A stretch of 64,000 bases of DNA from NCBI GenBank assembly GCA_024238995.1, contig JANBVL010000001.1:74059-138058 (forward strand). The letters run 5' to 3'. This document shows, in pieces, positions 1,031-52,309 of this stretch. Origin of the DNA: Patescibacteria group bacterium. GTDB lineage: Bacteria > Patescibacteriota > Minisyncoccia > Minisyncoccales > JANBVM01. Every line of letters starts with the position of its first letter. Within the stretch, counting starts at the first letter, position 1. The position numbers were made by a program, and so were the translations under genes. The notes beneath the pieces are model-generated. The model made no database searches. It was given only the letters and a program-made list of their open reading frames with translations, and was not told the origin of the DNA.

Positions 1031-4000
1031 TTAAGGCACTATATTGCCTATTGCGTTAGCATAAAGCCAATAACCAGAACCTGGGTTCATATTATTGTCT
1101 ATACCTGAGACTGGATGGGCTACTGTAGAATAATTCCCATCATAACCATATACTGTTATATAACTTATTCCTGAAAGATAGGTTGAACTCTTTACTGAAT
1201 CTACTGACTTAAATCCTATTAAATTCCATCCTGAAATTACAGGATAAGTAGGTAGGGTTTCTTCTGGTCCTGGCATTTCCACACCATTAACAGTTAAAAT
1301 ATCATCATCATCTTTCATAAATATCCAATAACCTTTTCCATCTTCCATTGTGATTAAATCGCCACCGATACCAGGAATATAACTTAACCAATCTTCAATT
1401 GAAGGATCATAATATTTCACTGTATCTATGTTAGTGCTTATATCAGCTAAAACATCTTCAATAACAGAGCTCTCTGGTATCAACGGCAATGAAATTAAGT
1501 TCCAACCAGCAGATAAAGGAATATTATAAGTAGTTACTGGATCAGGTGTCATATCCATCATAACCTCTGTAAGGCTTACATTAATCGTTCCTTGAATTAA
1601 TCCATTGTTTGAATTATAAGAAGCAGTTACGATAGTCTGTCCTGCTTCATTTGAAGTCAATACTGCCGTAGCTCTTCCATTTATATCTGAAAGCGTAATA
1701 TTAGATAAAGTTCCAATTATAGCAGCAAAATTAACTACAGCACCTTCTACTGGAATACCATTATCTAATACTTGAGCTATTATCAATGCTTGGCTTGTGC
1801 CGTCAGCAGGTAAACTTGCTTTATTTGATGATACCGTAATGCTTGCTATAGTTGGATTTACTATAAAACTCCATATTTTTGTGGTCGAATTGCCAGCATT
1901 ATCAGCAACAGTCACAGTTGCTTCGTATGTGTTGGGATTTAATGGAATTTGAGGTGTATATGTTACGCTGGCAGTGCTTTTAGTAGCATAATCATCAGCG
2001 TATTCGTCACCGCTAAAAGTTAAACCCACACTGTTAATATTTACTCCTGATCCGTTTTCGTTAAATTGTGCACTAATTTCCGGCGTTGCGTCTGAAGTAG
2101 TATCGTGAAGTTCAGGAGTTAAATTAGTAATTTCCGGCGCGGTTGAATCAACTACAAATTCTGTAACACTTAATTCCGTACTTGCGTTTCCGGCGGAATC
2201 AGTAACTGTAATTGTGCAATCGCTATATGTGCCGTCCTCTAATTCGTTGAAAGTGATTGCATTCTCGCCTATAATTGCGCTAGCAGTCGCACTTAAACAA
2301 CTTCCTCCGTAAGTTATTGCTCCTGTTTCATCCGAACTAAATGTATAATCAGGCGTTGAGTCGTTTGTTAGGGTTGATACTGGAGTTACTTCTTGTAATT
2401 CTGGCGCGGTTGCATCTAGTTTTGCTAAATTTGTAGCGATCTTTACTGTTTCAGTATTACCAGCCGCATCAGCAGTAAAATATTTAATGCTATATTCTCC
2501 ATCTAAACTAATATCTATAATTGTTCCTTGCGCTGAATCTGTAGTCGGATTATTACCATCAGTTGTGTAATAAGTTTTTATCGGAGATAACTCATCGTTT
2601 GTTACGGTTAAAATAATGTCAAATGTGGCTGTCTGCCATTCTAAAGGAGTATTATCAGAAGTTGAAGGAGTTGTTTTGTCTAACAATACTGTCACAGAAT
2701 TTATTTCTTCGTTGTTCCCAGCATTATCTGTAGAATAATATCTGACATAATTAGTGCCTTCGGTGGTAACTAAAACTTCTGTTCCTGCTGTGTTCGGCGT
2801 ACAAGCGTTCGCCTGATCAACACAGTAATAGACTGTAGCCACGCCGCTAGTATCGTCATTAGCAGTTAAAGTAAATATCACATTCGTATTCTGCCAATCT
2901 GTCGAAGCATCATCAGTGGTCGCTGGAGCAGTTTTATCTAACTGTAGAGTATCAGATGCTGTTTTAATCTCCTCTAAATTGCCGGCGTTATCTTCACCTC
3001 TGTATTTAATTGCATACTTTCCATCGGTTGAGACAGTGAATTGCCAATTACTATCTTCGTCAACAAAAGATGAGGCGGTTGTTGGGTTTGTGGTATCAAT
3101 TGTGTAATAAACTTTTAAGCAACCTGAATTACCGCCTGCTGTATCATCACAACTCAAAGTTACAGTGACATCAACTGCTTGCCAACTAGCCGGTACATTG
3201 TCTATTGTTGCCGGCGCTTTTTTATCTATTTTAACTGTTCTTGAAACTGTTTCCTGAACATTTCCAGCATTATCTGTAGAAGCATATCTAAGATAAGTTA
3301 TGCCTTCGTCACTAATTATAACGGGATTAACATAATCAGTTGCGGGATCGCAATTATTATTCGTATCAGTGCAATATTTGGTTGTTGTTACTCCTGACAT
3401 TGCGTCAGTTGGAGTTAAGGTAATAGTTTGATCTTCACTCTGCCAAATATTATCTTTAGCAACGTAATTATCTGATGTTGTTGGCACAATTGTATCTTTA
3501 ACCACTGTATCAGTAACAGCATCGCCTTGATTGTCAACTTGGTCGGTTAAATAAACAGTTAAAGTTAATGTGCCGTCATTTAAACCAGTAACATTAATAT
3601 TTATAATTTGTTGATTAGTAGCTGTAATTGTTCCAGTGCTTGTTATAGTCGTGCCTCCTACCGAACTCTCTATTGAATAATTATAGCTTGCATTTTCTTC
3701 AGCGCCAGTAAAAATAAAGGAAAGTGCGGTTTGGTTGCTGTTGTTAATGTAAGATTGGTCAATGGCAACAGTATATCCCGTTGGCGCGACTCCATCGGTA
3801 ATATCCAAATTTGTTGATCCAACGGCAGAAACAACACCTTTGGTGAAATCGTACATTTTGAAACTTATAATGTAATTTGCTTGTTTGCCAATTTTGGCAT
3901 TAAAAGTTGTTGATAAACCATTAGCGCTTTCATAATCGGATTCATTAACGCCGATTAGAAATCCACCTTCTGGTCCCCAAGCTAAAACTAAATCACCTGC

Positions 4001-7000
4001 GCCAGCACTTACATAACTACGCTCTGTTGCATCAGTTACCTCTGCCGGAATATTATCACCTGAAAAAATTATTTCATTAACGGCTAATCCTGGAATTACT
4101 CCATAAAATCTTACTAAATTATCTTTTTCCGTATCCTTTACATTTCCTTGCGTTGTCACAGTTAATGAAAATTCTGCATTCTGTTTGGCAGTAGCGCCCT
4201 CAGAAGTCATTTGAAGGTTTGTGGCGTCATCAAGAATTGTTAACTGCATTTTTTCGTTGTCACCGTTTATTTTCTTTTTATCGTCAATATCATAAAACAC
4301 AAATTTAATATCATAGACGCCAACTTCGGAAATTTTGGCCTTAAAAGTTGTGGTTAAACCAACATCACTTTCATAGGCAGTTTCAGCGTCACCGATTAGA
4401 AATCCACCTTCTGGTCCCCAAGCTAAAACTAAATCATCTGCGCCAGCGCTTACATAACTACGCTCTGTTGCATCAGTTACCTCTGCCGGAATATTATCAC
4501 CCAAAAAAGTTATTTGACCAATGTCTAATCCCGGAATCACGCCATAAAATCTTACTAAATGATCATTTTGGCTGTCGCGAACATTGCCTTTGGAATTTAT
4601 TTCAACGATGAACTCCAAATCCTGCTTTCGGCTAACATCACTGGCTGTCATATGAATTAAAGTCGGAAACACAACATTGACTTTTCTGGTTACTTCTGTT
4701 GCATTATTGCCAGCTGAATCTTTAATATTATAAGTTATGGTATAAGTACCCACCATACTTGTGTCTACTGGATTGACTATAATAATGTTTGCTGTGATGT
4801 TTCCATCTGTATTATCTTCTGCTGTTGCTCCTGCGTCTGTATAAGTCTCCCCTGTTTCAATTTCCACTGAAATATTTCCTGATAATGTTATCACTGGCGC
4901 GATATTATCAATAATAAATGTATTATTAGTTGCCGTTTCGTTTGGATTACCCGCTATATCTGTACCTAAAATCATTACTGTCGCATTTCCGTCGCTTCCG
5001 GCTGGAACATCATATTGGTGAGTCCATACCATTCCACTACCAGACATTGCTGTCTCGATTAAATCTGTATCAGTTGTATCAATAGCGATTGTCGGCGCAC
5101 TAACCATTGGTTCGTTAAAAGTTGCTGTAATTTCTATGGTGTCATCATCTCTTACGGGCCTATTAGGATTATAAGTTAACGCAACCGTTGGTGCGATATT
5201 GTCAATTATATAAGAAGTTTTACCAGTGGCTGTATCATTTGGATTACCAGCCACATCAATAGCAGTGATAGAAATATCAACATCAACATCATTACTAGAT
5301 GGGACATCCCAAGTATATGTCCATACTAAATTATTTGTCTCTGTCATAGCGGCACCTGTCACAATACTGCCAATAGTAATGGCTGGCATTGGGGTTTCAT
5401 CAATATTATTTGCTTCAGTAAAGGTAGCCGTAATTCTCACTATATTAGCATCTCTAACGATGTTGTCAGGGTGGTCATCTGATAAAATGACGGTTGGATT
5501 TTTAGTGTCAATATCAAAAGCGTTTGATAAATTGCCATCCACCTGTATATTTCCCGCTACATCTGTTGCTCCGCTTACGCTTACATTAATATAGTTCATT
5601 TCTACGCCTGCATCAGCCATATTATAAGTAGCTGTATAAGTCTTATTTGAGTTTGACCATAAGTTACTTACTAATGTTAAAGTAGATTCAATTATTGGAT
5701 CAAAAACAATTATTGGAACTGAATCTGAATTCATTGTTTCGTTGTAACCAATAGCAACTGTGAATACTGTAGATATTGTAGTGTCATCAGTAATTAAATT
5801 TATGCTTGGAGTTATTGTAGTTACTATTGGATCAACTGTATCAACCTTAAAATTTCCTGCCTCATTATCAACAACCATTACATTGCCTGCAACATCTTTT
5901 GCGCCTGTTACAGAAATTGTCACAGTTTCTTCTTTATTGTTATCCGAAAGAGTAAAAGTCTCTATCCATGTAGTTCCCGATGGCCAAACACCGTCGTTTT
6001 TAGTTGTTATAGTTTCTGTTATTCCTGTAAATCCAAGAGTTGGAGTTACTGCATCCATTATTTCGCTAAATAAAACGGTTATGACCACATCTCCTGCTTT
6101 GGCAGGATTAGGATTCGCTATTGCACTGACAATAATTGGATTTAATGCATCAATATCAAAAGCGTTTGATAAATTGCCATCCACCTGTATATTTCCCGCC
6201 ACATCTGTTGCTCCACTAACAGAAATATCTACATCAACAACTTCTATACTTGCGTCAGTTACATCATAAGTAAATTCATAAATATTTGAATTTAACCAGC
6301 TTCCACCGTTATTAAATGATAAGGTAGATGAAACTTCTGGAGTAAAAGTAATTATTGGAACTGAAGTTTGATCCATTGCCTCGTTGTAATTAATTGTAAC
6401 TGTAAATGTGCCGAAACCTGCATCAACATCTGTGATTTGAGTTAAATTTGGAGTTATTAAAGATGTTTCTGGCTTTATACTGTCAATCCTAAAATCTACG
6501 TCACTTTCATCGCTCGCTGTATTACCTGCTAAATCCGCGACCACAATTTTTACTTTGACTGTTTCTGAATTAATAGCAGGCACTGTCCAAGAATATGGAC
6601 TGGTGTTTGCCAAACCTTCCTCAATAGTATTCCAAGTAGCTCCGTTATCAGTAGTGTAATGTAAGCTAATTGGATTATCTTCCAAGTTTGTATCATTAAT
6701 TTTTGTAGCGTCCCATGTAATATCTTTAGAAACTGCTCCTGCCCAAAATTCTCCCCCAATAGGCGAAGTAATAGCGCTAGCATCTACGGTCGGATCAATA
6801 TTATCAATTGTAAAAACTCCTGAGACATTATAAACATCTGAATCAAAAGTATCTCTTACTTTAATGTAAGCATTGCCATCTGCTACTTCTGTAGTGTCCC
6901 AAGGATATAAATAATTGCTACAAGGCACACTGTCAGCAAGTCTGTCAGAAACATTTCCAAAATTGTCAGTAGAATAATAAATATTAACTGTATCCCCTCC

Positions 7001-7198
7001 TTCACAGTTAGCGGTCCAAGTTATATTCTGTGTTTCGTTCCAATATTCCCCATTAATCGGAGAAGTAACAGTAATGCCTGTTACGGCCAAGGCATTAGAA
7101 ATAAAAAAACCGCTAACGATTAACATTGCGGCTAAAATAATAAAAGACCCCTGTTTAAGAATCTTTGGTTTGTTATTAATAAATATATTATTGGTCAT
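1031..7198 (-). CDS. giant 2055-aa multi-Ig-domain cell-surface protein (adhesin-like)
   Basis: Uninterrupted 6.2-kb ORF with an N-terminal signal/anchor GSFIILAAMLIVSGFFISNALA. It contains many Ig-like modules with recurrent D-x-AGN motifs. One is DUF5011/HYR-like (ETYTDAGATAEDNTDGNIT...GTYTITYNIKDSAGN) and one is Big_1-like (ITVSSNKASLPADGTSQALIIAQVLDNGIPVEG). The C-terminal domain reads GWNLISLP...GYWI...GWNLIGF...GYWLY. Confidence 0.85.
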   Translation of the reverse strand: MTNNIFINNKPKILKQGSFIILAAMLIVSGFFISNALAVTGITVTSPINGEYWNETQNITWTANCEGGDTVNIYYSTDNFGNVSDRLADSVPCSNYLYPWDTTEVADGNAYIKVRDTFDSDVYNVSGVFTIDNIDPTVDASAITSPIGGEFWAGAVSKDITWDATKINDTNLEDNPISLHYTTDNGATWNTIEEGLANTSPYSWTVPAINSETVKVKIVVADLAGNTASDESDVDFRIDSIKPETSLITPNLTQITDVDAGFGTFTVTINYNEAMDQTSVPIITFTPEVSSTLSFNNGGSWLNSNIYEFTYDVTDASIEVVDVDISVSGATDVAGNIQVDGNLSNAFDIDALNPIIVSAIANPNPAKAGDVVITVLFSEIMDAVTPTLGFTGITETITTKNDGVWPSGTTWIETFTLSDNNKEETVTISVTGAKDVAGNVMVVDNEAGNFKVDTVDPIVTTITPSINLITDDTTISTVFTVAIGYNETMNSDSVPIIVFDPIIESTLTLVSNLWSNSNKTYTATYNMADAGVEMNYINVSVSGATDVAGNIQVDGNLSNAFDIDTKNPTVILSDDHPDNIVRDANIVRITATFTEANNIDETPMPAITIGSIVTGAAMTETNNLVWTYTWDVPSSNDVDVDISITAIDVAGNPNDTATGKTSYIIDNIAPTVALTYNPNRPVRDDDTIEITATFNEPMVSAPTIAIDTTDTDLIETAMSGSGMVWTHQYDVPAGSDGNATVMILGTDIAGNPNETATNNTFIIDNIAPVITLSGNISVEIETGETYTDAGATAEDNTDGNITANIIIVNPVDTSMVGTYTITYNIKDSAGNNATEVTRKVNVVFPTLIHMTASDVSRKQDLEFIVEINSKGNVRDSQNDHLVRFYGVIPGLDIGQITFLGDNIPAEVTDATERSYVSAGADDLVLAWGPEGGFLIGDAETAYESDVGLTTTFKAKISEVGVYDIKFVFYDIDDKKKINGDNEKMQLTILDDATNLQMTSEGATAKQNAEFSLTVTTQGNVKDTEKDNLVRFYGVIPGLAVNEIIFSGDNIPAEVTDATERSYVSAGAGDLVLAWGPEGGFLIGVNESDYESANGLSTTFNAKIGKQANYIISFKMYDFTKGVVSAVGSTNLDITDGVAPTGYTVAIDQSYINNSNQTALSFIFTGAEENASYNYSIESSVGGTTITSTGTITATNQQIININVTGLNDGTLTLTVYLTDQVDNQGDAVTDTVVKDTIVPTTSDNYVAKDNIWQSEDQTITLTPTDAMSGVTTTKYCTDTNNNCDPATDYVNPVIISDEGITYLRYASTDNAGNVQETVSRTVKIDKKAPATIDNVPASWQAVDVTVTLSCDDTAGGNSGCLKVYYTIDTTNPTTASSFVDEDSNWQFTVSTDGKYAIKYRGEDNAGNLEEIKTASDTLQLDKTAPATTDDASTDWQNTNVIFTLTANDDTSGVATVYYCVDQANACTPNTAGTEVLVTTEGTNYVRYYSTDNAGNNEEINSVTVLLDKTTPSTSDNTPLEWQTATFDIILTVTNDELSPIKTYYTTDGNNPTTDSAQGTIIDISLDGEYSIKYFTADAAGNTETVKIATNLAKLDATAPELQEVTPVSTLTNDSTPDYTFSSDETGAITYGGSCLSATASAIIGENAITFNELEDGTYSDCTITVTDSAGNASTELSVTEFVVDSTAPEITNLTPELHDTTSDATPEISAQFNENGSGVNINSVGLTFSGDEYADDYATKSTASVTYTPQIPLNPNTYEATVTVADNAGNSTTKIWSFIVNPTIASITVSSNKASLPADGTSQALIIAQVLDNGIPVEGAVVNFAAIIGTLSNITLSDINGRATAVLTSNEAGQTIVTASYNSNNGLIQGTINVSLTEVMMDMTPDPVTTYNIPLSAGWNLISLPLIPESSVIEDVLADISTNIDTVKYYDPSIEDWLSYIPGIGGDLITMEDGKGYWIFMKDDDDILTVNGVEMPGPEETLPTYPVISGWNLIGFKSVDSVKSSTYLSGISYITVYGYDGNYSTVAHPVSGIDNNMNPGSGYWLYANAIGNIVP
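3951..4060. repeat. intragenic 110-bp near-identical repeat, copy 1 (partner 4392-4501)
   Basis: ccgattagaaatccaccttctggtccccaagctaaaactaaatca...ctctgccggaatattatcacc differs from copy 2 at 2 positions. The 441-bp offset equals a 147-aa tandem domain duplication (LVRFYGVIPGL...NIPAEVTDATERSYVSAGA.DLVLAWGPEGGFLIG occurs twice). Confidence 0.9.
4392..4501. repeat. intragenic 110-bp near-identical repeat, copy 2
   Basis: Direct comparison with 3951-4060 shows 2 mismatches, both transitions. Confidence 0.9.
5508..5572. repeat. intragenic 65-bp near-identical repeat, copy 1 (partner 6150-6214)
   Basis: tcaatatcaaaagcgtttgataaattgccatccacctgtatatttcccgc(t/c)acatctgttgctcc encodes SGATDVAGNIQVDGNLSNAFDID in both modules. 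The offset is 642 bp (214 aa). Confidence 0.9.
6150..6214. repeat. intragenic 65-bp near-identical repeat, copy 2
   Basis: Direct comparison with 5508-5572 shows 1 mismatch. Confidence 0.9.
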
Positions 7199-7513
7199 AT
7201 TTATTTATTAACTTGATTATTAAATTTTATAATAGTAACCGACTAAGTCACTATTGCTCTTAATAAAATATTGAGCCTTTAGAAAACCCTATCACAATGC
7301 AAAGAAGGCTGTCAAGTATGCTCTTTTTTAGCTTTTATAAACCAAAATATTACGGCCAAATTAGATTTTAGCTAGGACATAACATATAAATTAGGAAGGT
7401 AGGACATAATATTCCATTTTTTTTAAAAATCCAATTTAAAATAAATTGAAATGAATATTTAATGAAAGAGTAACGAAAAATCTTAACTTTTCTTAACATT
7501 TTTAACAGGAAGC

Positions 7514-7575
7514 AACGTCGTACAACATAGATTATGCGACACAAAACAGGGCTTTGAGTCCTCGCTCATAGATTG
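7514..7575. repeat. intergenic repeat family, copy A (short form)
   Basis: aacgtcgtacaacatagattatgcgacacaaaacagggctttgagtcctcgctcatagattg. It shares the GTCG(C/T)ACAACATAG head and the AGGGCTTTGAnTCCTCGCTCATAGATT module with copies at 9993-10120 and 11072-11160. Confidence 0.85.
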
Positions 7576-7590
7576 TAAGACATAAAATCA

Positions 7591-7613
7591 TACAATTTAT
7601 CTTGTGAGAAGTA
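7591..7613. repeat. left arm of perfect 23-bp inverted repeat
   Basis: tacaatttatcttgtgagaagta is the exact reverse complement of 8378-8400. Confidence 0.95.
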
Positions 7614-7636
7614 TACAGATCTAATTGTATTTTAGG

Positions 7637-8170
7637 TTAAGCTTTCTTTGACAATTTAGAGATAATCTTTTTAGAAAGCAAATCTGCTGGTTTAGAAACT
7701 TTTTTTAATTTATTTATTGTATATCCAGTATCTCTTGTGTCTAAACTTTGCAGGTGTAGTTTATTCCTTTCGATTCTAACATAGTTTATTTGTTTAAATT
7801 CGCTGGGAGTTATAATTTTATTTCTTTTTAAATAGCGATTTAAAATTTCAAAGGTGACCCCTTTGTCGTCTATGTTTATATTTTTTTTAATTTTTTTACA
7901 TATAAAAACAGCGTCTTCCTTGAAGACATTGCGGGGAATTTGATGCAAACCTTTAAATTCATCTTTTACGCCAACTATATTTCCTGTCTTTTTACTGTAC
8001 ATCTTTACTAATTGATAAACCATTCCTTCTATTATTGTACAAATCAATACAGTTGCTGATCTAAAATAGGCGGACTTTGCTACATTACTTATTCCTTTTT
8101 TATTAGCTTGTTCGAGATAAACAGCAATAGCGGTTGCTCTCCTTTTTATATTTTGCCAGAAAGTCTTCAT
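7637..8170 (-). CDS. hypothetical helical protein (weak HEPN-like hint only)
   Basis: 177-aa ORF whose start overlaps the upstream small ORF by 4 nt (ATGA). The segment VRIERNKLHLQ gives an R-x6-H / R-x3-H spacing that is only loosely HEPN-like. No family recognised. Confidence 0.5.
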   Translation of the reverse strand: MKTFWQNIKRRATAIAVYLEQANKKGISNVAKSAYFRSATVLICTIIEGMVYQLVKMYSKKTGNIVGVKDEFKGLHQIPRNVFKEDAVFICKKIKKNINIDDKGVTFEILNRYLKRNKIITPSEFKQINYVRIERNKLHLQSLDTRDTGYTINKLKKVSKPADLLSKKIISKLSKKA

Positions 8171-8352
8171 TTTTTAATGCTTTTCTCTGCACGAGATAAT
8201 GCCTTACTCAAGGAAGGAAGACCTTTTTCCTTAAGGTAGTTCCCGAGTTTTTTATCAGAACGTGCAGCAAAATCGACGCCATATTGTTTCTCAATGGTAC
8301 CTATTTTAGTATCGGCTCTTTTTCGCCTAAATTGTGATTTTTTACTAGCCAT
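8167..8352 (-). CDS. small basic protein (61 aa), translationally coupled to 7637-8170
   Basis: ORF-track protein MASKKSQFRRKRADTKIG... has a 4-nt stop/start overlap with the downstream gene. An inward-facing TTGTGA-18-TAAAGT promoter-like sequence lies partly inside the right inverted repeat. Confidence 0.5.
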   Translation of the reverse strand: MASKKSQFRRKRADTKIGTIEKQYGVDFAARSDKKLGNYLKEKGLPSLSKALSRAEKSIKK

Positions 8353-8377
8353 ATGTTTTACTTTATCATAAAAATTC

Positions 8378-8400
8378 TACTTCTCACAAGATAAATTGTA
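8378..8400. repeat. right arm of perfect 23-bp inverted repeat
   Basis: tacttctcacaagataaattgta is the reverse complement of 7591-7613. It is followed by cgac, so 8396-8404 ttgtacgac mirrors gtcgtacaa at 7517-7525. Confidence 0.95.
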
Positions 8401-8450
8401 CGACTTTCATTATCCTATCTTAAATATTGTTTCGGATAAAAATATGGGTT

Positions 8451-8870
8451 TTAAAAATTTTGTAGTTCTCTTAGCTCTTTTTTTCCATTTTTACTTAATA
8501 CTCCTTCTCCATATAATTTCCATAGCAAAACTTTATTCTTGAGATAGTTGTGGTGATTTTCGTTAGTTACAGAATATAATATTTCGCCGATATCTGCTTT
8601 CGGACCTATAATCTCGAAAGGCATGTCTTCTAAGTATAGGGAATCTTTTCTTCTGACTTCAAACGTATTACATTCTTTACCACCTATAACTTCTGAATGT
8701 TTTTTAATTCTATCGTTTGAATTCCAATTAAAATAAGGTAAAATTTTTATTTTTAAAACAAATTCCCTAATAATTTCTTCCTTGGAGAAATCTTCTTTAT
8801 CTATTCTTATAATTAGAGAATAAATATGCTCATCTTTATCGCGTTTTTTTGTTTTATATCCTATATACAT
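8451..8870 (-). CDS. hypothetical protein (139 aa)
   Basis: Clean ORF with no signal peptide and no recognisable family. Confidence 0.5.
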   Translation of the reverse strand: MYIGYKTKKRDKDEHIYSLIIRIDKEDFSKEEIIREFVLKIKILPYFNWNSNDRIKKHSEVIGGKECNTFEVRRKDSLYLEDMPFEIIGPKADIGEILYSVTNENHHNYLKNKVLLWKLYGEGVLSKNGKKELRELQNF

Positions 8871-8968
8871 AATATAATTTTATTTCTTTTAGTTAATCTC
8901 TGCTTGGGTTTTTCGGTATACACCATCAATCTCTCTTAGTCAGAATTATTCTTATTAATTAAAATGAA

Positions 8969-9871
8969 TTATTTTATTTTTTCTTGACGAACAATTTTAA
9001 ATCCTTTTTCTTGTACTTTTTTGATAAAATCATTCTTATATTCTTCTGATTTCTCGTTAACCGCTTGATTTAAAAGCAATGATCTCAATTCTGTTCCTGT
9101 ATTAGAAAATACAAGCAAGCCGAAGTCAAATTTTTTTGTCTTTTGTGGACCATCGTAAGTTATTAAAAATAAATCACCAGCAATATTTAAAGATAGAGGC
9201 TTTGAAACTAACAGATCTATGTCATATAAAAGACTAGATGATTGATTAAATATTCCTACATTTGACAAATCAAGGTAATTCATAAAATCAAGATTATACT
9301 TTTTTAATGATTCTTCAGCTGTGAAGCCTAACCTTATAACCCCTATCTTAGTAGAAATAGCAATAAATTTTAAAAAATCTTGTAAATTTTTTTGAGAAAG
9401 ATATTTAACTATCTCTAAAGTTTGATAAGAAAAGCTTCCTGGTTTTTGAATTTCGCCTGATAGGATTTTAGCTAAAACGTCTTGTAGTCTTTCTCTACTT
9501 ACATTTTGTGCCACATCTAGAAATCTCATAGTCCAATCTTTTTCAACCGGCGCTTCAGAGACGGCTTTTCCTTCTAAATCGTTTCGTGTTTTAACTATAA
9601 TATTTTCGAGATTAATTTGTTTATTATATTGTTCTAGTGCAAACCTTTTCTCTGCGCGCCCAAGTATCTTAATTGCTTTTTCTTGTCCCTCTGCTTGGGC
9701 AATAATTTTTTGTTTCTCTACTTCGGCTTCTGCTTGTCCAATCCTTTTTATTTTTTCAGTATCAAATTCAAATATACGATTACCAACAACGCCTATTCCT
9801 TCAGAGATAGTCTCAATTAATTTCTTTAATGGTTTTTCTAAACCAATAATATCTTTTATCGACGTATTCAT
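8969..9871 (-). CDS. DUF2806-like protein
   Basis: EKDWTMRFLDVAQNVSRERLQDVLAKILSGEIQKPGSFSYQTLEIVKYLSQKNLQDF matches from memory the DUF2806 signature (KDW..RF...A..VS.E..Q.LWAKILAGE...PGSFS.RTL). Confidence 0.6.
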   Translation of the reverse strand: MNTSIKDIIGLEKPLKKLIETISEGIGVVGNRIFEFDTEKIKRIGQAEAEVEKQKIIAQAEGQEKAIKILGRAEKRFALEQYNKQINLENIIVKTRNDLEGKAVSEAPVEKDWTMRFLDVAQNVSRERLQDVLAKILSGEIQKPGSFSYQTLEIVKYLSQKNLQDFLKFIAISTKIGVIRLGFTAEESLKKYNLDFMNYLDLSNVGIFNQSSSLLYDIDLLVSKPLSLNIAGDLFLITYDGPQKTKKFDFGLLVFSNTGTELRSLLLNQAVNEKSEEYKNDFIKKVQEKGFKIVRQEKIK

Positions 9872-9992
9872 ATTTTTTTATATTTTAGCACTTTCAAACC
9901 ATCTTTAAAAATACAGAAATTCAATGTAATAAGCGTATGTCGATTATCGAAAAAATATAAGATTTTGGTGTAATTTTGGCGTAACTCTAATT

Positions 9993-10120
9993 AAGGTCGC
10001 ACAACATAGAAAGTCCTCATTCGTTAATGTTGGTATATTCATTTTTTTTAAGGGCTTTGATCCCTCGTCCATAGATTATGCGACACAAAACAGGGCTTTG
10101 AATCCTCGCTCATAGATTGG
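9993..10120. repeat. intergenic repeat family, copy B (long form, two tandem modules)
   Basis: aaggtcgcacaacatag + aaagtcctcattcgttaatgttggtatattca + T8 + agggctttgatccctcgtccatagatt + atgcgacacaaaac + agggctttgaatcctcgctcatagatt + ggtcgcc. Confidence 0.85.
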
Positions 10121-10201
10121 TCGCCAAAAATATACCTTACGCGACATTTATTTCCTCAACTTCGGGCTAAATTTTATTATTATGATTTTTGTTCCGCGAG
10201 T

Positions 10202-10759
10202 TTACCATTTTTCCCAATGTATATTGTTTTCCTTGAATTTGTCTTTTGGCGATTGGTTTTTTTTAACCGGTACGCCAATCGGAATAACATTTAAAGGAAT
10301 AACATATTCAGGGACTCCTAGAATATTCTGAACATTTTTAACTAATGCCTCGGCGGGAAAAACCGCGGTCCAAACCGCGCCATAACCCAAAGCATGAGCG
10401 GCTAATAAAATATTTTCTGAGGCGGCTGAGCAGTCCTGAACCCAAAAATCTTTAAGTAATGACTTAATTGTCACTTTGAGCACAAAATTTAAAAGCTTTG
10501 ATTTGTCGGGTAGACCGCAAACCACAATGGCCGCGTCGGCTTTTGAAAGCATTTTGGCGTAAGGCAGTTTTTTACAAAGCGCGTCTAAAGTTTCCCGTTT
10601 GGTCACAACGACAAATGACCAGGGCTGTCGATTAGCGGCCGATGGCGCCGACATCGCTGCTTTTAACATCGTCAACAAATCCTCTTTTTTAATCTCATCC
10701 CCCGTGAATTCCCGGACGCTATGGCGAGTAAGAATGTTTTTTAAAGCTTCGTTTTCCAT
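10202..10759 (-). CDS. nitroreductase-family oxidoreductase
   Basis: TRHSVREF...APSAANRQPWSFVVV...AAHALGYGAVW are typical FMN nitroreductase-fold motifs. Confidence 0.85.
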   Translation of the reverse strand: MENEALKNILTRHSVREFTGDEIKKEDLLTMLKAAMSAPSAANRQPWSFVVVTKRETLDALCKKLPYAKMLSKADAAIVVCGLPDKSKLLNFVLKVTIKSLLKDFWVQDCSAASENILLAAHALGYGAVWTAVFPAEALVKNVQNILGVPEYVIPLNVIPIGVPVKKNQSPKDKFKENNIHWEKW

Positions 10760-10775
10760 AAAATATTAAACGTGA

Positions 10776-10931
10776 TTATTTATTTTTCCAGTTATTATAT
10801 TCTTCCCAAGTTATAGCATACTTTTCTCTGCATTTTTCAGAACATTTTTCTTCGTCTTCTGAAAAGATGCTAAACCTATTTTCAAATGATGCTCCAGAGC
10901 AAGTACCAAGACAAGCATCAAATCTAATCAT
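10776..10931 (-). CDS. possible small Cys-containing protein (51 aa)
   Basis: Below the track cutoff. My translation is MIRFDACLGTCSGASFENRFSIFSEDEEKCSEKCREKYAITWEEYNNWKNK. Its ATG overlaps the stop of the upstream mini-ORF (ATGA). Confidence 0.3.
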   Translation of the reverse strand: MIRFDACLGTCSGASFENRFSIFSEDEEKCSEKCREKYAITWEEYNNWKNK

Positions 10932-11026
10932 ATTTCTATTATAAACGTTTTGATTTTGTAAATAAAAACTACAACATCTAAAGCTGCTGTAGTAGAAAAG
11001 AAGATAACTAACGCTTTCTTGTTCAT
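10928..11026 (-). CDS. possible 32-aa hydrophobic peptide
   Basis: My translation is MNKKALVIFFSTTAALDVVVFIYKIKTFIIEI. A TTGACA-17-TAAAAA promoter-like sequence lies on the minus strand at 11035-11063. Confidence 0.2.
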   Translation of the reverse strand: MNKKALVIFFSTTAALDVVVFIYKIKTFIIEI

Positions 11027-11071
11027 ATTATTACTTTTTATGTTTTAAAAAGTGACTTGTCAATAATGAAA

Positions 11072-11160
11072 AACGTCGCACAACATAGAAAGTCCTCATT
11101 CGTTAATGTTGGTACATTCAATTTTTTTTAAGGGTCTCAACTCCTCATCCATAGATTGTA
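11072..11160. repeat. intergenic repeat family, copy C (one long module)
   Basis: aacgtcgcacaacatagaaagtcctcattcgttaatgttggtacattcaattttttttaagggtctcaactcctcatccatagattgta is near-identical to the first 70 bp of copy B. Confidence 0.85.
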
Positions 11161-11170
11161 CGGACTTATT

Positions 11171-11197
11171 AAAAAACCACTGACCTCTAGCCAGTGG
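11171..11197 (-). terminator. Rho-independent terminator candidate
   Basis: Minus strand reads ccactggctagaggtcagtgg followed by tttttt. The stem is 6 bp (ccactg/cagtgg), directly 3' of the 11202-11624 gene. Confidence 0.55.
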
Positions 11198-11201
11198 CTT
11201 T

Positions 11202-11624
11202 TCACCTCCACAACAGCTTAATTTTATGAATAACATCCCTAATAAACTGCCAGAGCCTGTCAAGAAATCCTGGTAATTCTTTTTTTACTTCTTCTTTCTC
11301 TTGTTCAAACTCTTGTTCAATAATTTCTTGTCTAATTTCTATCTCCTGCTCTATCCTAGGACCAAAAAAGTTTTTAACTTTTAACCAGACGTTTGTGTAA
11401 GCCCAGTCATACATTTTCTGCCACATTGGCAGAACTTTTCCATACCAAAGCTCTTTAACGACACCAGGTAAATCTCTTTTGCCAATTTCCAAAACCTCCT
11501 CCCCCATTTGCTGAGCTTGTTCAAAAGTTTCTGGCACTTCAATAATAATATCATCCTGGGCAAAAGAAAAGCCTGATAAAACTAGATTAAAAAGTATAAA
11601 AAGTGTTAAAAATCGTTTTTTCAT
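11202..11624 (-). CDS. secreted hypothetical protein (140 aa)
   Basis: Signal peptide MKKRFLTLFILFNLVLSGFSFA. The rest is Glu/Gln-rich and helical. There is a 4-nt overlap with gltX. Confidence 0.6.
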   Translation of the reverse strand: MKKRFLTLFILFNLVLSGFSFAQDDIIIEVPETFEQAQQMGEEVLEIGKRDLPGVVKELWYGKVLPMWQKMYDWAYTNVWLKVKNFFGPRIEQEIEIRQEIIEQEFEQEKEEVKKELPGFLDRLWQFIRDVIHKIKLLWR

Positions 11625-25523: not shown

Positions 25524-25534
25524 CATGGTTGTTA

Positions 25535-25592
25535 AAATAAAAAAGTGCGTGATTTTAAGCTTTAAAAAATTTTAAAACTATATAAATCACGC
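25535..25592 (-). terminator. conserved 3' flank / long-hairpin terminator, copy 1 (partner 25939-25995)
   Basis: Minus strand reads GCGTGATTT...AAATCACGC (9-bp stem) followed by ACTTTTTTATTTT. The roughly 57 bp, including the last codon and TGA, are nearly identical behind both small membrane genes. Confidence 0.5.
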
Positions 25593-25838
25593 CGAATGTT
25601 GAATAACTTTTTCTTCTGTATCACGATCCAGAAAGATTATGAAAGACAGAAGCAAGGGAACGAGCCCAATTATAATGAGTGCCCATCCTCCCAAGATGTG
25701 GGTATCATATTGGGTAGTTGCTGGTTCGCTATCTGGTGGAATATCTATATTCCACTCTACTATTGTTGGCTCACCAAAAATCATTAAGCCCAAACCAGCA
25801 GCTATCAGGAACAAACCTAACATCAAAAGAAACAACAT
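25587..25838 (-). CDS. small two-TM membrane protein, paralog 1
   Basis: MLFLLMLGLFLIAAGLGLMIFGEPTIVEWNIDIPPDSE...LGGWALIIIGLVPLLL. The track start (GTG 25862) lies inside a conserved GGAGGTGATAGAAA leader that is in a different frame in paralog 2. I therefore prefer the ATG at 25838. Confidence 0.6.
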   Translation of the reverse strand: MLFLLMLGLFLIAAGLGLMIFGEPTIVEWNIDIPPDSEPATTQYDTHILGGWALIIIGLVPLLLSFIIFLDRDTEEKVIQHSA

Positions 25839-25886
25839 TATTTTCTCTCTTATTTCTATCACCTCCTTGAAAGAACTTAAGATTTA

Positions 25887-25917
25887 TTATAATAACAGAG
25901 ATAACAATTTTGTCAAT
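25887..25917 (-). promoter_or_regulatory. conserved promoter-like leader of paralog 1
   Basis: Minus strand TTGACAAAATTGTTATCTCTGTTATTATAAT aligns with TTGACAAAATTATTAGTTTTGTTATCGTGATAAAT upstream of paralog 2 (26277-26312). Confidence 0.45.
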
Positions 25918-25938
25918 GTGTCTATAATATTAGGATAT

Positions 25939-25995
25939 AAATAAAAAAAATGCGTGATTTTAAGCTTTAAAATTTTAAAACTATATAAATCACGC
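25939..25995 (-). terminator. conserved 3' flank / long-hairpin terminator, copy 2
   Basis: Same gcgtgattt...aaatcacgc hairpin and T-run as 25535-25592. Confidence 0.5.
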
Positions 25996-26286
25996 TATTG
26001 GAGGAATTTGTTCTTCTTTATAGTGTTGCGACAAAGGACTTGCTAACATTATAAATATTAATCCAGTTACAACCATCCCTAATCCCATCTGGATGTGATG
26101 GCTGTATTCATTATTTGTGTCTTGCGGGATATCTATATCCCAAGTTGCTGTTGCTGGCTCACCAAAAGACATGATGGATATCCCAACAATTATCAGGATT
26201 AATCCTGATAAGAAAAACAAATCCAGATTATTGGTTCCTATTTTTCTATCACCTCCTGATATACAAAAGAACTTAGAATTTATCAC
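25990..26286 (-). CDS. small two-TM membrane protein, paralog 2 (true start probably internal)
   Basis: FGEPATATWDIDIPQDT and the two TM segments parallel paralog 1. The N-terminal roughly 20 codons overlap the conserved leader, so the start is uncertain. Confidence 0.55.
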   Translation of the reverse strand: MINSKFFCISGGDRKIGTNNLDLFFLSGLILIIVGISIMSFGEPATATWDIDIPQDTNNEYSHHIQMGLGMVVTGLIFIMLASPLSQHYKEEQIPPIA

Positions 26287-26332
26287 GATAACAAAACTAA
26301 TAATTTTGTCAATAAATCCTGCTTCCGCCCCT

Positions 26333-29445: not shown

Positions 29446-29745
29446 ATGAGATTTTCAATTAAAAATAAGAATAAATACAATTTTGCTATGTTGCTTAGAA
29501 AGATCGGATATAAGTATCTGGGCAAAACTGACAAGCAAGAGTATAATCTTGTTAAACCTTTTGAAAGAGGCGGTTATCCAAGATTTCATATTTATTTAAT
29601 AATCAATGAAAAAGAAATGGTTTTTAATATACATTTAGATCAAAAAAAACCTATATACAAAGGCGCTCCAGCTCACGGCGCTGATTATGAAGGCAAAGTT
29701 ATAGAACAAGAAGCTCAAAGAATAAAACAAGCTTTATTAGAATGA
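29446..29745 (+). CDS. hypothetical protein (99 aa)
   Basis: Tightly packed between mvaS (1-nt gap) and the next gene (4-nt overlap). No family recognised. Confidence 0.55.
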   Translation: MRFSIKNKNKYNFAMLLRKIGYKYLGKTDKQEYNLVKPFERGGYPRFHIYLIINEKEMVFNIHLDQKKPIYKGAPAHGADYEGKVIEQEAQRIKQALLE

Positions 29746-30410
29746 TTAATAAAAAAGTAGCTCAAATATTATACGAGATAGGAGACTTATTAGATATTCA
29801 GGGAGTAGCTTATAAACCTAAAGCTTATAGAAAGGCTGCCAAGACTTTAGGGGACCTGAAAGAAAATATTTCCCAAATTTATAAGAAACAAGGAATTAAG
29901 GGAATTAAAAAGATTCCAGGTATTGGGGAAAGCATTGCCAAAAAAATTGAAGAATATTTAAAAAAGAAAAGGATTAAATATCATGAAGAGCTAAAAGAAA
30001 AATCAACCATTCGACAAATTATTACTCATTATTTTAAAACCAAAGGACTGAGCTTAGCAGAACTTAAAAAAAACGCTAAAAAAAGAAAAATAGTTTACTC
30101 CCGCTTCACTAAGCCGGCTAAACAACTTCTGACACTAGCAGGTTCTGTGGAAAAAGCTAAAGCTGCAATTTCCAAAGTGGCCGGATGGGCAAAATCTAGG
30201 AATTTAGATTATGCGATTGAAACAGTTTTTAAAAAATGGCTGGAACTTGATAGATTAAAACCAAAAGAAATTGTCAAAAAACCATATTATAGAAACGATC
30301 CAATGATCTGGTCAGAAACAAAAAAAAAGTGGTATGTTATTGATAGAAACGGCGATTGGCTTGAATTTGCTGATCAAGAATCAAAAATTGAATGGCGTAT
30401 TGTTAAATAA
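29742..30410 (+). CDS. helix-hairpin-helix protein with Pol X N-terminal-like domain
   Basis: VAQILYEIGDLLDIQGVAYKPKAYRKAAKTLGDL...IPGIGESIAKKIEEYL resembles the family X polymerase 8-kDa/HhH region. No polymerase palm is present. Confidence 0.6.
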   Translation: MINKKVAQILYEIGDLLDIQGVAYKPKAYRKAAKTLGDLKENISQIYKKQGIKGIKKIPGIGESIAKKIEEYLKKKRIKYHEELKEKSTIRQIITHYFKTKGLSLAELKKNAKKRKIVYSRFTKPAKQLLTLAGSVEKAKAAISKVAGWAKSRNLDYAIETVFKKWLELDRLKPKEIVKKPYYRNDPMIWSETKKKWYVIDRNGDWLEFADQESKIEWRIVK

Positions 30411-30417
30411 TAGAATT

Positions 30418-30978
30418 ATGCTCTCTTATTCAGAATTAAAAAGAAAATCAAGGATTATTATAGATAAAGAACCATATGAAATAATAGAAGCAAACTCTAC
30501 TGTAAAAGCTAGGGGCTCCTCTGTTTTGCAAACCAAGTTAAGGAATTTAAAAACAGGGAATGTAGTTTCTAAAACATTTCATCCTTCAGATTCTTTAGAA
30601 GAACCTGAAATTTCAAAATTAGAAGTAAAATTCATTTATTCTCATAAAGATAAATTTGTCTTCACTAAAAAAGATAATCCATCTGAAAGATTTGAATTAA
30701 CAGCTGGCCAGATTGGTGAACAAGTAATTTTTTTAACACAAAATTCTATAGTAGAAGCTTTAGTCTTTAATAATGAAGTAATTAATATTTCCCTGCCCAT
30801 TAAAGTGAACTTAAGAGTCAAAGAAGCTCCGCCAAGCGTAAAAGGAGAATCTCAATCTGGGAATAAAAGTGTTGTTTTAGAAACTGGAGCTAAAATCACT
30901 GTCCCCTCTTTTATAAAAACTGGGGATGTTGTTGAAGTGAATACTGAGAGTAAAGAGTATGTAAGAAGGATTGAGTAA
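30418..30978 (+). CDS. efp: elongation factor P
   Basis: The EF-P N-terminus MLSYSELKRKSRIIIDKEPYEIIEA begins at ATG 30418. The track start 30334 overlaps the previous gene and adds non-EF-P residues. Confidence 0.92.
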   Translation: MLSYSELKRKSRIIIDKEPYEIIEANSTVKARGSSVLQTKLRNLKTGNVVSKTFHPSDSLEEPEISKLEVKFIYSHKDKFVFTKKDNPSERFELTAGQIGEQVIFLTQNSIVEALVFNNEVINISLPIKVNLRVKEAPPSVKGESQSGNKSVVLETGAKITVPSFIKTGDVVEVNTESKEYVRRIE

Positions 30979-33247: not shown

Positions 33248-34552
33248 CTACATTTTATGTATTTTTCTTTTTAATTCTTCTTCTTTTTTCTTCCATTCAG
33301 TCTTAACTTTATCTAAAACATCCATCCTTTTATAAATGTATTTATGGCTTTTCCACCAGCGAGAGATATTTATGGCAATGAAGATTGATAAAGGAACAAG
33401 AAACAGAATCGCCTTCCACCAAGAAAGGAAAATAGTAAATATGCTTATCCCGCTTTTTGAAATGTAAAATAATCTTGTGCTGGGAATAATTTCTATTCTT
33501 TCTGAAGCATCCTGCCAATTCATAGCTTGGTCATAGGCTCTTACTACTATCTCATATTCTCCTAAGTCAAGATTATGCAGCCGGTAAGGACTATTCACTT
33601 CTACAAAGAAACTGGCTTCTTTGTTCTGAACAGTTTTTCTAAGATTAACTGCTTTCATTTCATAATGATCTAAGCCAGAAAGAGCATCAGTAGTAATAAA
33701 AGAAACAACTGGCGCTCTGGCAGCAGTAACTGGTGAGTTGGGGGTAGGTTCAAAGCTAAGTTTAAAAATGGCTGGTGGAGTTGTATCTATTTGAACAAGA
33801 TAATGAGTAACCCCTCCCCAACCTCCTCCTTTCTTGGCTTTTATGTGAAAATACCATATTCCATCTTCTAAATCGACGTAAGAAACTGACGCATGACTTC
33901 CCTCAGAAATATTATCTGGTACTGTATGAAAATTCTGGTCAATACTATAGCTGAAATCAGTTACTCCTGTTTCTTTTTGCCAAGCAAAAGCTGGATTATT
34001 GTTTTTGTACCATTTATTTTGGTCAGTGTAAGTAGAAGAAAATACTTTTGGTCCTGCTGGCGGAGGAATCTTTAAACTATAAAAGCCCTCTCCCATTGAA
34101 GTTAAAATATTAGTTCCTTTGCCATCGTCTAAAAGAACCTGAGAAGAATCTAAGAATTCAATAAAAGTTTCTCCTGGAGAAATGACTCTAAAAGTAATTG
34201 TAGAAACCAATCCCGAAGAAGTGTTGATTCCTGGAGATGGCACTCCTCCTTGAAAAGAAACAGTTCCTTCAATATTAGAATAAGTGGGTTGAGCAATCCA
34301 GACTGAAATGAATGATTTTCCAGCAACCGGGCTAGCTACCTGAAGTTTTCTAGGATCAAATTTCAAATCTACTTCTACGGCATTAATATCATTTCCTCCA
34401 GTATTAACAAAAATAGAAACATTAAAAGTGCTTCCAATGAAAAAAGTGCCAATATTAGGAGAGAAATACAAAGAAGCACCTTCAGCACTAACGACAAAAG
34501 GCACGAAAAAGGAAAATATTATAATAAATACTATATAAAATGATTTTTTCAT
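33248..34552 (-). CDS. cohesin-like single-pass membrane protein, paralog 5
   Basis: ASLYFSPNIGTFFIGSTFNVSIFVNTGGNDINAVEVDLKFDPRKLQV...GTVSFQGGVPSPGI, then DGIWYFHIKAKKGG, a C-terminal TM, and a Lys/Glu tail. Confidence 0.78.
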   Translation of the reverse strand: MKKSFYIVFIIIFSFFVPFVVSAEGASLYFSPNIGTFFIGSTFNVSIFVNTGGNDINAVEVDLKFDPRKLQVASPVAGKSFISVWIAQPTYSNIEGTVSFQGGVPSPGINTSSGLVSTITFRVISPGETFIEFLDSSQVLLDDGKGTNILTSMGEGFYSLKIPPPAGPKVFSSTYTDQNKWYKNNNPAFAWQKETGVTDFSYSIDQNFHTVPDNISEGSHASVSYVDLEDGIWYFHIKAKKGGGWGGVTHYLVQIDTTPPAIFKLSFEPTPNSPVTAARAPVVSFITTDALSGLDHYEMKAVNLRKTVQNKEASFFVEVNSPYRLHNLDLGEYEIVVRAYDQAMNWQDASERIEIIPSTRLFYISKSGISIFTIFLSWWKAILFLVPLSIFIAINISRWWKSHKYIYKRMDVLDKVKTEWKKKEEELKRKIHKM

Positions 34553-34588
34553 CGCTAATAATATAATTATAGCATACTCTAAAGTCTG

Positions 34589-37371: not shown

Positions 37372-37386
37372 TCTTTAATTTGAGAG

Positions 37387-48026: not shown

Positions 48027-48557
48027 TTACTTTTCAATTCCAAATTCCATTGATTTTTTAATTTGAATCATTTCTAAAGGATCAACATCTTTTAAAGAAT
48101 TGCCTTTAAACTCTTGAATCACTTTAATTCCTTCAATGTCAATATCAACACGGCTCCTTGAAGCTAATATTAAATTGGGTTCTCTTATTTCACCCTCAGC
48201 AGGGCCTTTAGTTATAAAGCATTTTCTTGCATCCATAATAATTAAGTCAGGATGAATTAATTTGTTTAACTCAGCTATTTTTTCCTGAAGATTTTTCAAA
48301 TGAAGCCTGACGCGCTCAATTGGCTTCATAAAACCAATAGATAATTTTAAAGCTCCGGTAAATTGAGCATATGAATGAGTTTTTAAATTAGGTAAAAGTA
48401 TCAACTTGTCAGCTCTTTCTAAAAATTCAGTTACTGAAACTGTCTTTAGAAATTTACCATTGGGAACTTGTTTTTTAATCCATTTCCTTTCATCAAAATT
48501 ATATATTCTTGGAGGTATTTCTATTTTCTCCAAATCAAAAACACCAAGCTTTTCCAT
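48027..48557 (-). pseudogene. DUF362 gene, C-terminal fragment (split by element insertion)
   Basis: LILLPNLKTHSYAQFTGALKLSIGFMKPIERVRLH is the DUF362 core. The apparent ATG abuts the recombinase stop (1-nt overlap). The N-terminal fragment is at 62660-62923. Confidence 0.8.
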
Positions 48558-50285: not shown

Positions 50286-50299
50286 AATTTTGTTAAGGT

Positions 50300-50354: not shown

Positions 50355-50385
50355 ATTTTAATTATCTATGCCAACCTTTTAATTA

Positions 50386-50940: not shown

Positions 50941-50944
50941 TATT

Positions 50945-51289: not shown

Positions 51290-51333
51290 GGATTATATCA
51301 GTATATAGAAAGCAATTAAAATAGGAAGAAAAT

Positions 51334-52302: not shown

Positions 52303-52309
52303 AGAAAAC

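Follow-up and report, generated by a model that had tools for sequence, protein, structure and literature searches.

The locus described here lies in a stretch of 64,000 nucleotides (nt), referred to below as the window, from a Patescibacteria metagenome-assembled genome (NCBI locus tag KJI70_00430), and consists of a perfect inverted repeat that brackets two overlapping genes, the first for a basic protein of 61 amino acids (aa) and the second for a 177-aa protein with a HEPN fold. On balance, we lean towards reading this feature as a possibly invertible, toxin-antitoxin-like cassette, similar to the dif modules of Acinetobacter plasmids and situated in a Patescibacteria cassette hotspot. The original prediction, made from the letters of the window, had described perfect 23-bp inverted repeats around an ATGA-coupled two-gene cassette, with coordinates and open reading frames (ORFs) as we find them, and had offered a mobile toxin-antitoxin-like cassette or an invertible segment among its interpretations; the comparative data, that is a conserved module, a hotspot and portable sites, favour these.

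The inverted repeat bracketing the gene pair is a real, non-random feature. The sequence TACAATTTATCTTGTGAGAAGTA occupies positions 7591-7613 of the plus strand and its exact reverse complement positions 8378-8400, and a search of the 64 kb at up to 3 mismatches finds just these two matches to the 23-nt arm, with none in shuffled sequences (0/100). Taken over 30 nt (7584-7613 and 8378-8407), the repeat agrees at 28 positions (93%) and ends abruptly on both sides, since the flanks beyond it are unrelated. The arms enclose only two ORFs, both on the minus strand, at 8167-8352 (61 aa) and 7637-8170 (177 aa), which are coupled by an ATGA overlap that places the start of the 177-aa gene over the stop codon of the gene upstream. 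At this locus the window agrees letter for letter, and in orientation, with an ENA scaffold and with a Logan contig assembled from the same sample, and therefore the inverted repeat is no artefact of a single assembly. The Logan contig ends at 7528 and 10025, both within copies of a small repeat family described further below.

Each arm is itself an imperfect palindrome of 9-11 nt, a 6-nt spacer and another 9-11 nt. The right site (armR; 8379-8406, minus strand) reads AAGTCGTACAA-TTTATC-TTGTGAGAAGT, its outer arm facing the upstream cassette and its inner arm facing the 61-aa gene, whose ATG is 26 nt beyond the site. The left site (armL; 7585-7612, plus strand), which is inverted with respect to all other copies, reads AAATCATACAA-TTTATC-TTGTGAGAAGT and begins 24 nt past the stop codon of the 177-aa gene; its spacer and inner arm are the same as those of the right site and its outer arm is degenerate. 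The two sites are identical at 26 of 28 positions, in inverse orientation, and the 6-nt spacer TTTATC that they have in common is found in no other site of the family to which they belong. Folded as single strands the arms reach -0.5 kcal/mol, no better than shuffled sequence, which argues against roles as terminator, repetitive extragenic palindromic (REP) or IS200-type hairpins; with no terminator predicted in them either, a hairpin or terminator function of the arms was rejected.

As judged by sequence comparison, the arms are not private to the operon, and both are members of a family of palindromic sites with the consensus GTCGCAyAA-N6-TTGTGmGAy and the spacer nnTATn. The two arms and two further sites, P1 and P4, fit GTCGCACAA-N6-TTGTG[A/C]GA with few mismatches, and at up to 2 mismatches this pattern gives 5 strand-hits in the window and 0 in 100 shuffles. 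P1 (7515-7542, minus strand; GTGTCGCATAA-TCTATG-TTGTACGACGT) is a separate and complete site in the common orientation, which is that of the genes, and its core reads GTCGTACAA-CATAGA-TTATGCGAC on the plus strand (7517-7540). P4 (core at 56341-56364, minus strand; GTCGCACAA-GATATA-TTGTGAGAC, with longer arms ACGTCGCACAA and TTGTGAGACCT) is also intact; it falls in non-coding DNA of a prophage-like block, ahead of a gene for a terminase, and shares 26 of 27 positions with a site in the metagenome contigs L025 and L028. Intact sites number about 4 in the 64 kb, all of them tied to variable regions. The recognition of P1 weakens an earlier proposal, according to which the left arm was a longer ancestral arm interrupted by an insertion with target duplication: GTCGTACAA (7517-7525), taken there for the detached end of that arm, is an arm of the complete site P1, and the left arm owns a degenerate outer arm of its own, ATCATACAA.

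Relatives of the locus, found via GltX (which in the window is closest to Nealsonbacteria-like genomes), show that the interval from the gltX/140-aa operon to a giant surface-protein gene is a cassette hotspot. On one side of the variable region the shared sequence ends with a conserved hairpin (11171-11197, minus strand), the terminator of the 140-aa gene that follows gltX, and homology with the relatives resumes in the upstream or promoter region of the 2055-aa surface-protein gene (7199-7440, minus strand), which forms the far boundary. Between them the window has three cassettes on the minus strand: a 51-aa Cys-rich ORF with a nitroreductase (cassette 1, 10202-10934), a DUF2806 protein of 300 aa with a 139-aa protein (cassette 2, 8451-9871), and the 61-aa gene with the HEPN gene. 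Each cassette has a site in front of it, in turn site C, site B and the right arm, and the last is followed by the left arm and P1, the four direct sites (C, B, armR and P1) parting the three cassettes. In L017 and L018 (GltX 76%) a 70-aa plus 189-aa cassette and a 502-aa DUF8370 cassette are likewise parted by sites of the family, and in L019 (GCA_964450805.1; GltX 73% identity) just 313 nt separate MurG-GltX-139 aa from the giant surface-protein gene, and neither a cassette nor a site is present. The GC content of the cassette block is 0.29 versus 0.33-0.38, and cumulative GC skew is monotonic across the locus, with no skew switch.

The junctions B and C are interrupted copies of the same kind of site. 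Junction B, between the nitroreductase and DUF2806 cassettes (9993-10160, minus strand), is composite, with partial sites and a site split by a 65-nt insertion (10005-10069); junction C (11075-11165, minus strand) reads GTCCGTACAA-TCTATG, a 66-nt insertion (11084-11149) and TTGTGCGAC. Both insertions fall exactly between spacer and right arm, with CTATG duplicated, and L017 has at the same position as site C the uninterrupted TCCGTGCAA-TCTATG-TTGTGCGAC.

Beyond this locus, the pattern GTCGYACAANNTATNTTGTGAGA matched 12 JGI metagenome contigs, which are unrelated and all low in GC; every one of them has C at the degenerate Y and C or T after GAGA, positions that the pattern leaves free. L022 and L031 share with L026 and L017 just the 28-29-nt site, at 100% identity. 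Between L026 and L017 the DUF8370 cassette is conserved at 92.7% identity for 1639 nt, up to the very last position of the site and no further; these are different loci, because their neighbouring proteins are unrelated, and the DUF8370 cassette is thus found in two contexts with the same site. A lone 338-aa gene lies between two sites in L031, and the phage-like contig L024 (gp32, PolA) also carries the site. Two circular low-GC molecules, L030 (3957 nt) and L032 (5479 nt), each with a 99-nt terminal overlap, have one site each, no recognisable integrase and no ORF above 242 aa; in the related L029 the five largest ORFs are without a Pfam match. By these comparisons the site is portable and marks cassette edges. 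In the small circles L030 and L032 and the related L021 and L029, the site has extended palindromic flanks (ACTTAGT...ACTAAGT), with a variable segment between versions.

Concerning the genes themselves, the second of the pair (7637-8170, minus strand) codes for a putative RNase toxin. It has 17 relatives at E<=1e-3, among which 11 of the 17 match the Pfam family HEPN_RiboL-PSP (PF18735) below threshold and 7 match DUF4145. Residues R132, R135, N136, K137 and H139 are invariant in the family (motif RxERNKLH), so that the conserved Rx4-6H-type motif of HEPN proteins is present as the invariant R132-x6-H139. The AlphaFold (AF2) model, with a predicted local distance difference test score (pLDDT) of 89.7, finds HEPN proteins as its best PDB matches in Foldseek, namely YutE (1ylm), 1wwp and the HEPN-MNT toxins 7ae6 and 7ae8, followed by HepT (6m6w) and SO_3166 (5yep), with probabilities of 0.9-0.99, yet weak E-values (0.1-1). 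The first gene (8167-8352, minus strand) belongs to a family of 161 clusters at 57-85% identity, distributed across classes of the Patescibacteria, or candidate phyla radiation (CPR), including Nealsonbacteria, Magasanikbacteria and Kaiserbacteria, and far wider than the HEPN family. The 61-aa protein has no Pfam match; its model shows four helices (pLDDT 85.5), and a fold search with it returned no structural or PDB neighbour. PADLOC and NCBIfam gave nothing useful for either protein, and a PDB sequence search with the two gave nothing.

These two genes form a conserved module that recurs across Patescibacteria in unrelated contexts, its neighbours elsewhere being restriction enzymes, GmrSD/HNH proteins, IS110 and phage-like genes. 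Nucleotide homology to L033 and L035 begins at the ATG of the small gene, stops just short of the end of the HEPN gene and leaves out the flanks. A distant case is L036, where a homologue of the 61-aa gene overlaps a gene of 202 aa that is distantly related to the HEPN family (hhalign 96.9%, with RKERNKIH in common); a second apparent pair in L004 (7371/7561) was discarded as not homologous. In L033 the HEPN pair and the next cassette stand between direct copies of an unrelated 82-nt repeat (329-410, 4699-4780, 5634-5715 and 7124-7205), with an IS110 transposase nearby. This repeat is a second, different cassette-junction system, junction systems varying between lineages, and the arrangement supports the cassette nature of the pair. 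Architecture and modelled fold make the pair toxin-antitoxin-like; it is not a HEPN-MNT system, because the partner of the HEPN protein is not an MNT protein. Most likely it would act as a toxin-antitoxin or abortive-infection module, composed of a HEPN RNase and a small neutralising or regulatory partner.

With two inverted arms and an asymmetric spacer of 6 bp between them, the sites are laid out like the core sites of tyrosine recombinases, notably dif and the plasmid dif sites (pdif). E. coli dif is GGTGCGCATAA-TGTATA-TTATGTTAAAT (PMC3025954), and pdif sites that recombine by experiment include ATTTCGTATAA/CGTGTA/TTATGTTAATT, GATTCGCATAA and ATTTCATATAA (PMC13141974, Table 1). The outer arms AAGTCGTACAA and AAATCATACAA match the XerC-binding pdif sites ATTTCGTATAA and ATTTCATATAA at 8 of 11 positions each, GTGTCGCATAA of P1 matches GATTCGCATAA at 9 of 11, the inner arm matches the XerD site at 7 of 11, and one metagenomic site of the family has the spacer TGTATA. 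A position weight matrix (PWM) was built from nine published dif/pdif sites and used in a blind scan of the window, about 128,000 positions, in which P1, P4 and the left arm were all placed among the top 50, although the matrix did not set the sites apart from shuffled sequence.

In the mechanism that we propose, the portable sites of about 28 bp would delimit exchangeable cassettes in this Patescibacteria lineage, the 61-aa/HEPN pair being one of them, and would serve as crossover points of a host-encoded site-specific recombinase. The arm-6-arm layout and the core CGyAyAA...TTrTG, both found in dif and pdif as well, make an Xer-like tyrosine recombinase the first candidate; the near-symmetric arms suggest a fit with a single-recombinase system, and the conserved central TA makes a serine recombinase possible instead. 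The integrase-less circles L030 and L032 were counted in favour of a recombinase supplied by the host. Recombination would invert the module, because the sites that flank it are inverted and have identical spacers, and the predicted junctions would join the outer-right to the inner-left arm (...GATAATGAAAGTCGTACAATTTATCTTGTGAGAAGTATACAGATC...) and the outer-left to the inner-right arm (...CATAAAATCATACAATTTATCTTGTGAGAAGTAGAATTTTTATG...). Speculatively, inversion could cut the operon off from its promoter, whose -10 element lies in the outer end of the arm. Transfer to another replicon might proceed in two steps, by cointegrate formation and resolution, as proposed for Acinetobacter dif modules.

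A number of observations weigh against a dif-module-like, invertible cassette. Three assemblies display a single orientation of the module. The original prediction had proposed to look for the 23-mer elsewhere; the exact 22-mer of the arm has no further occurrence in JGI metagenomes or IMG/VR, and the degenerate site pattern is absent from IMG/VR. A search for homologues with a check of their flanks, likewise proposed, did return homologous pairs; inverted repeats or palindromes flank none of those in L004, L005, L006, L008, L033 and L035. These six loci also rule out the inverted repeat as an intrinsic part of the gene pair, and among the loci compared the HEPN pair was not seen in a second context bounded by the same type of site. 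The outer arm of the left site is degenerate, the sites of the array are mostly direct and not alternating, and the empty, siteless L019 is unexpected under a simple model of integration at a resident site. No recombinase is adjacent to the module and no tyrosine recombinase was found among the scanned ORFs of the window, its sole recombinase being a large serine recombinase (48557-50149) 40 kb away in the prophage-like block. In the PWM scan the right arm ranks 6th of the roughly 128,000 positions with a score of 9.6, and shuffled windows reach 14-19; nor is GTTAAAT, the outer arm of XerD type, matched. The likeness to Xer sites is suggestive, not demonstrated, because shuffled windows outscore the sites and the XerD-type arm is unmatched.

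Among the rival explanations, the sites could be inert scars or generic repeats like REP sequences or miniature inverted-repeat transposable elements (MITEs), with the cassettes moved by homologous or illegitimate recombination and the inverted pair left by a local duplication or inversion, without machinery now. This would agree with the dispersed, gene-oriented small repeat family that adjoins the arms and is abundant in other CPR genomes (5 copies per 8 kb in L014), with the 65-66-nt insertions that break B and C, with the several partial sites and with the degenerate left outer arm. However, the repeated unit has exactly the size of a site (about 28-30 bp) and unrelated sequence on either side, contigs that are otherwise unrelated carry strongly conserved intact sites, the few intact copies are linked to variable regions, and the arms do not form hairpins, unlike REP or IS200-type ends, so that we consider this explanation unlikely, if the strongest of the rivals. 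Close behind it in probability, and also unlikely, are operator or promoter palindromes: a regulator, for instance the 61-aa protein in the role of an antitoxin that controls its own operon or of a repressor of accessory genes throughout the lineage, would bind ACAA-N6-TTGT at the right arm and at the downstream left copy, perhaps with looping. Toxin-antitoxin operons are classically autoregulated at palindromes, and the right arm, 26 nt before the ATG, lies over the sole consensus-grade promoter predicted there, TTAAGA-17-TACAAT, whose -10 (TACAAT) is the outer end of the arm; sites B, C, L017a and L026b (48 nt) also precede the next gene, in gene orientation. Yet the same site stands beside unrelated genes and on small circles, the site that closes the DUF8370 cassette at its 3' end accompanies the gene before it while the gene after it changes, the distance from site to next start varies from 26 to more than 400 nt, and 28-29 nt that are identical in unrelated contexts, with the spacer included, are more than an operator needs. 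The symmetric operator pair, which had been put forward earlier, is further disfavoured by the homologous HEPN pairs that lack a comparable palindrome. The inward-facing TTGTGA noted in both arms is present, but as a -35 element driving the operon it lacks an acceptable -10 at 16-18 nt in either arm, and the antisense promoter suggested for the left arm finds no support, as no acceptable sigma-70-type promoter is there.

The perfect 23-nt terminal inverted repeat around a compact cargo would also suit a non-autonomous transposon, mobilised in trans by a DDE transposase and carrying the gene pair. In that case a target-site duplication might be expected, but the flanks outside the arms differ (GTAAGACAT and CATTATCCT) and there is none; moreover, no transposase is found in the window, which has one arm pair only, no further copy of the arms occurs in JGI metagenomes or IMG/VR, and members of the arm family elsewhere are single or in direct orientation, all of which makes a transposon very unlikely. 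The least probable explanation, to which we give hardly any weight, acts at the RNA level: a read-through transcript, possible in that no terminator is predicted from the 139-aa gene to the right arm, would pair the arms into a 23-bp duplex closing the operon mRNA, as a target of RNase III or a stabiliser, or else the left arm would be a terminator. Neither arm, however, is a terminator-like hairpin, and the family mostly occurs singly.

Returning to the dif-module-like cassette, the closest known parallel is formed by the dif modules of Acinetobacter Rep_3 plasmids, which use pdif sites and XerC-XerD (PMC13141974, PMC6449649, PMC6160057). There, toxin-antitoxin modules are the commonest cargo, and inversions between inversely oriented pdif sites with identical spacers have been documented experimentally (PMC13141974). 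As in those modules, a small gene module, often toxin-antitoxin, lies here between two inverse 28-bp sites (11-bp arms, 6-bp spacer) with identical partner spacers (both TTTATC), a condition for inversion; the outer arms agree with the pdif XerC-binding sites at 8-9 of 11 positions; and in both cases arrays include partial, mutated and fused sites, some modules being without ORFs. In contrast, the present system is chromosomal and from Patescibacteria, its inner arm (TTGTGAGAAGT) departs from the XerD consensus TTATGTTAAxT, its arms are near-symmetric, and its neighbouring sites are mostly direct. The window moreover has no Xer gene among its scanned ORFs, and this module was seen in no second context.

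Integrative mobile elements exploiting Xer (IMEX), such as CTXphi and TLC at the Vibrio dif site, together with the sites cer and psi, at which plasmid multimers are resolved, offer a parallel for integrase-less elements with one dif-like site (here L030 and L032), for tandem arrays parted by direct sites (here C, B, armR and P1, with three cassettes) and for phage-like DNA bearing the site (here P4 and L024). The array in the window is, however, not at a recognisable chromosomal dif or terminus, has no GC-skew switch and is matched by an empty relative without a site, and the sites on either side of the HEPN module are inverted instead of direct. Integron cassettes resemble the array as compact same-strand cassettes of unrelated function with imperfect palindromes between them at a fixed hotspot, and toxin-antitoxin cassettes are common among them. 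But attC sites measure 57-141 bp and are conserved in structure (R''/L''/L'/R'), whereas the sites here measure 24-28 bp and are conserved in sequence; furthermore, the window has no IntI, attI or Pc, the array is flanked by gltX/140-aa and the surface-protein gene, and its cassettes have two genes.

With HEPN-MNT systems (HepT-MntA, type II/VII) the pair has in common the HEPN fold, the R...H catalytic-type motif, HepT/HEPN toxins as best structural matches, a translationally coupled two-gene operon and defence-island-like contexts; it differs in its partner, a basic 61-aa four-helix protein encoded upstream instead of an MNT nucleotidyltransferase, in an inserted beta-hairpin, in the motif RxERNKxH and in having no PADLOC or NCBIfam hits. 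Finally, REP/BIME, REPIN and MITE elements share the short palindromes and small mosaic intergenic repeats, in inverted pairs, and the adjoining 41/66-nt repeat family behaves in this way in other CPR genomes, whereas the arms form no hairpins, are few per genome, are linked to cassettes and are conserved over 28 bp.

A broader idea, which we offer tentatively and hold to be somewhat doubtful, is that CPR bacteria have a dif-module-like currency of their own: a near-symmetric site of about 28 bp, GTCGCACAA-nnTATn-TTGTGAGAY, with a host Xer-type enzyme, would let one- and two-gene cassettes be shuttled among chromosomal hotspots, integrase-less circles and phages, and the small repeat would specifically insert into the spacers and inactivate them. 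If this were true, the dif-module mechanism would reach beyond Acinetobacter plasmids into the chromosomes of a major uncultivated lineage and would provide a concrete route for gene flow in reduced genomes. Up to about 13% of Patescibacteria genome length is attributed to horizontal transfer in a study that mentions no mechanism at the level of recombination sites (PMC12455944), and among the papers that a literature search listed, none joined a CPR term with dif or Xer. A 28-bp site at the edges of cassettes on chromosomes, small circles and phage-like DNA would offer both a mechanism open to test and a search key for accessory and defence genes, and the dif-module principle, described so far as native to Acinetobacter plasmids (PMC13141974), would prove more general. 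The HEPN and 61-aa pair is in its own right a widespread uncharacterised two-gene system.

The small repeat family deserves a separate description. The 66 bp to the left of the left arm were correctly noticed from the outset as a unit of a repeat family: 7526-7590 belongs to it, and other copies lie at about 10029-10130 and 11072-11170. The filler between P1 and the left site (7543-7584, minus strand) is such a unit and includes a half-site, GTCTTACAA-TCTATG (7567-7581). That the small repeat inserted and left a short duplication is proven for sites B and C only, not for the left arm. The repeat is about 41-66 nt long and begins (C)TATGGAyGAGGAG..TyrAArCCC. Copies in other CPR genomes, a Saccharibacteria contig among them, are found in L011 (960-1120 and 3880-4130), in L013 (3388-3575) and in L014, a 516-kb chromosome with five gene-oriented copies within 8 kb (461-520, 2686-2750, 3337-3369, 4312-4388 and 4991-5075). 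Some copies are joined to terminator hairpins. The repeat is absent from Rfam, and it could be a site-targeting MITE or an element of 3' untranslated regions. Scanning a genome collection for the small-repeat pattern returned single copies in other CPR genomes, together with matches in Cognatishimia and Bdellovibrionales that are probably due to chance. An origin of the repeats in tRNA or other non-coding RNA was rejected, with no tRNA (ARAGORN) and nothing in Rfam at gathering thresholds over the whole window, and Rfam at E<=10 gave only noise in the region 9900-11300; a small ORF within the repeats (MDEE/MSED..KP) was also rejected, the frame differing between copies.

Some further features of the window are worth recording. 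The prophage-like block (48557-62121) encodes, besides the serine recombinase, the large subunit of a terminase (54689-56233) and a CHC2 zinc-ribbon protein (60088-60663); many of its ORFs have no match in Pfam, and P4 lies there in a 450-nt non-coding stretch of odd composition (56234-56682). TAGGACA(T) motifs are repeated upstream of the giant surface-protein gene, at 7370-7412 in the window, and are conserved in two relatives (L017:14980-15100 and L019:12055-12085), in opposite orientation in L019; they may represent an operator or an invertible element close to the promoter. Cellulosome-like parts are also encoded, with a dockerin-domain protein, the 2055-aa Ig-like surface protein and four tandem cohesin-domain paralogues (386-997, 1031-7198 and 33248-38634). 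Tandem direct repeats of about 400 nt (78-81% identity) occupy 25533-26313, within a 101-aa ORF and around it, with a 267-aa gene on one side and a Mur ligase gene on the other. On the plus strand, the ORFs of an HHH_8 protein (29742-30410) and of EF-P (30334-30978), which together span 29742-30978, overlap by 77 nt, the start of EF-P being probably mis-called in the mechanical ORF list.

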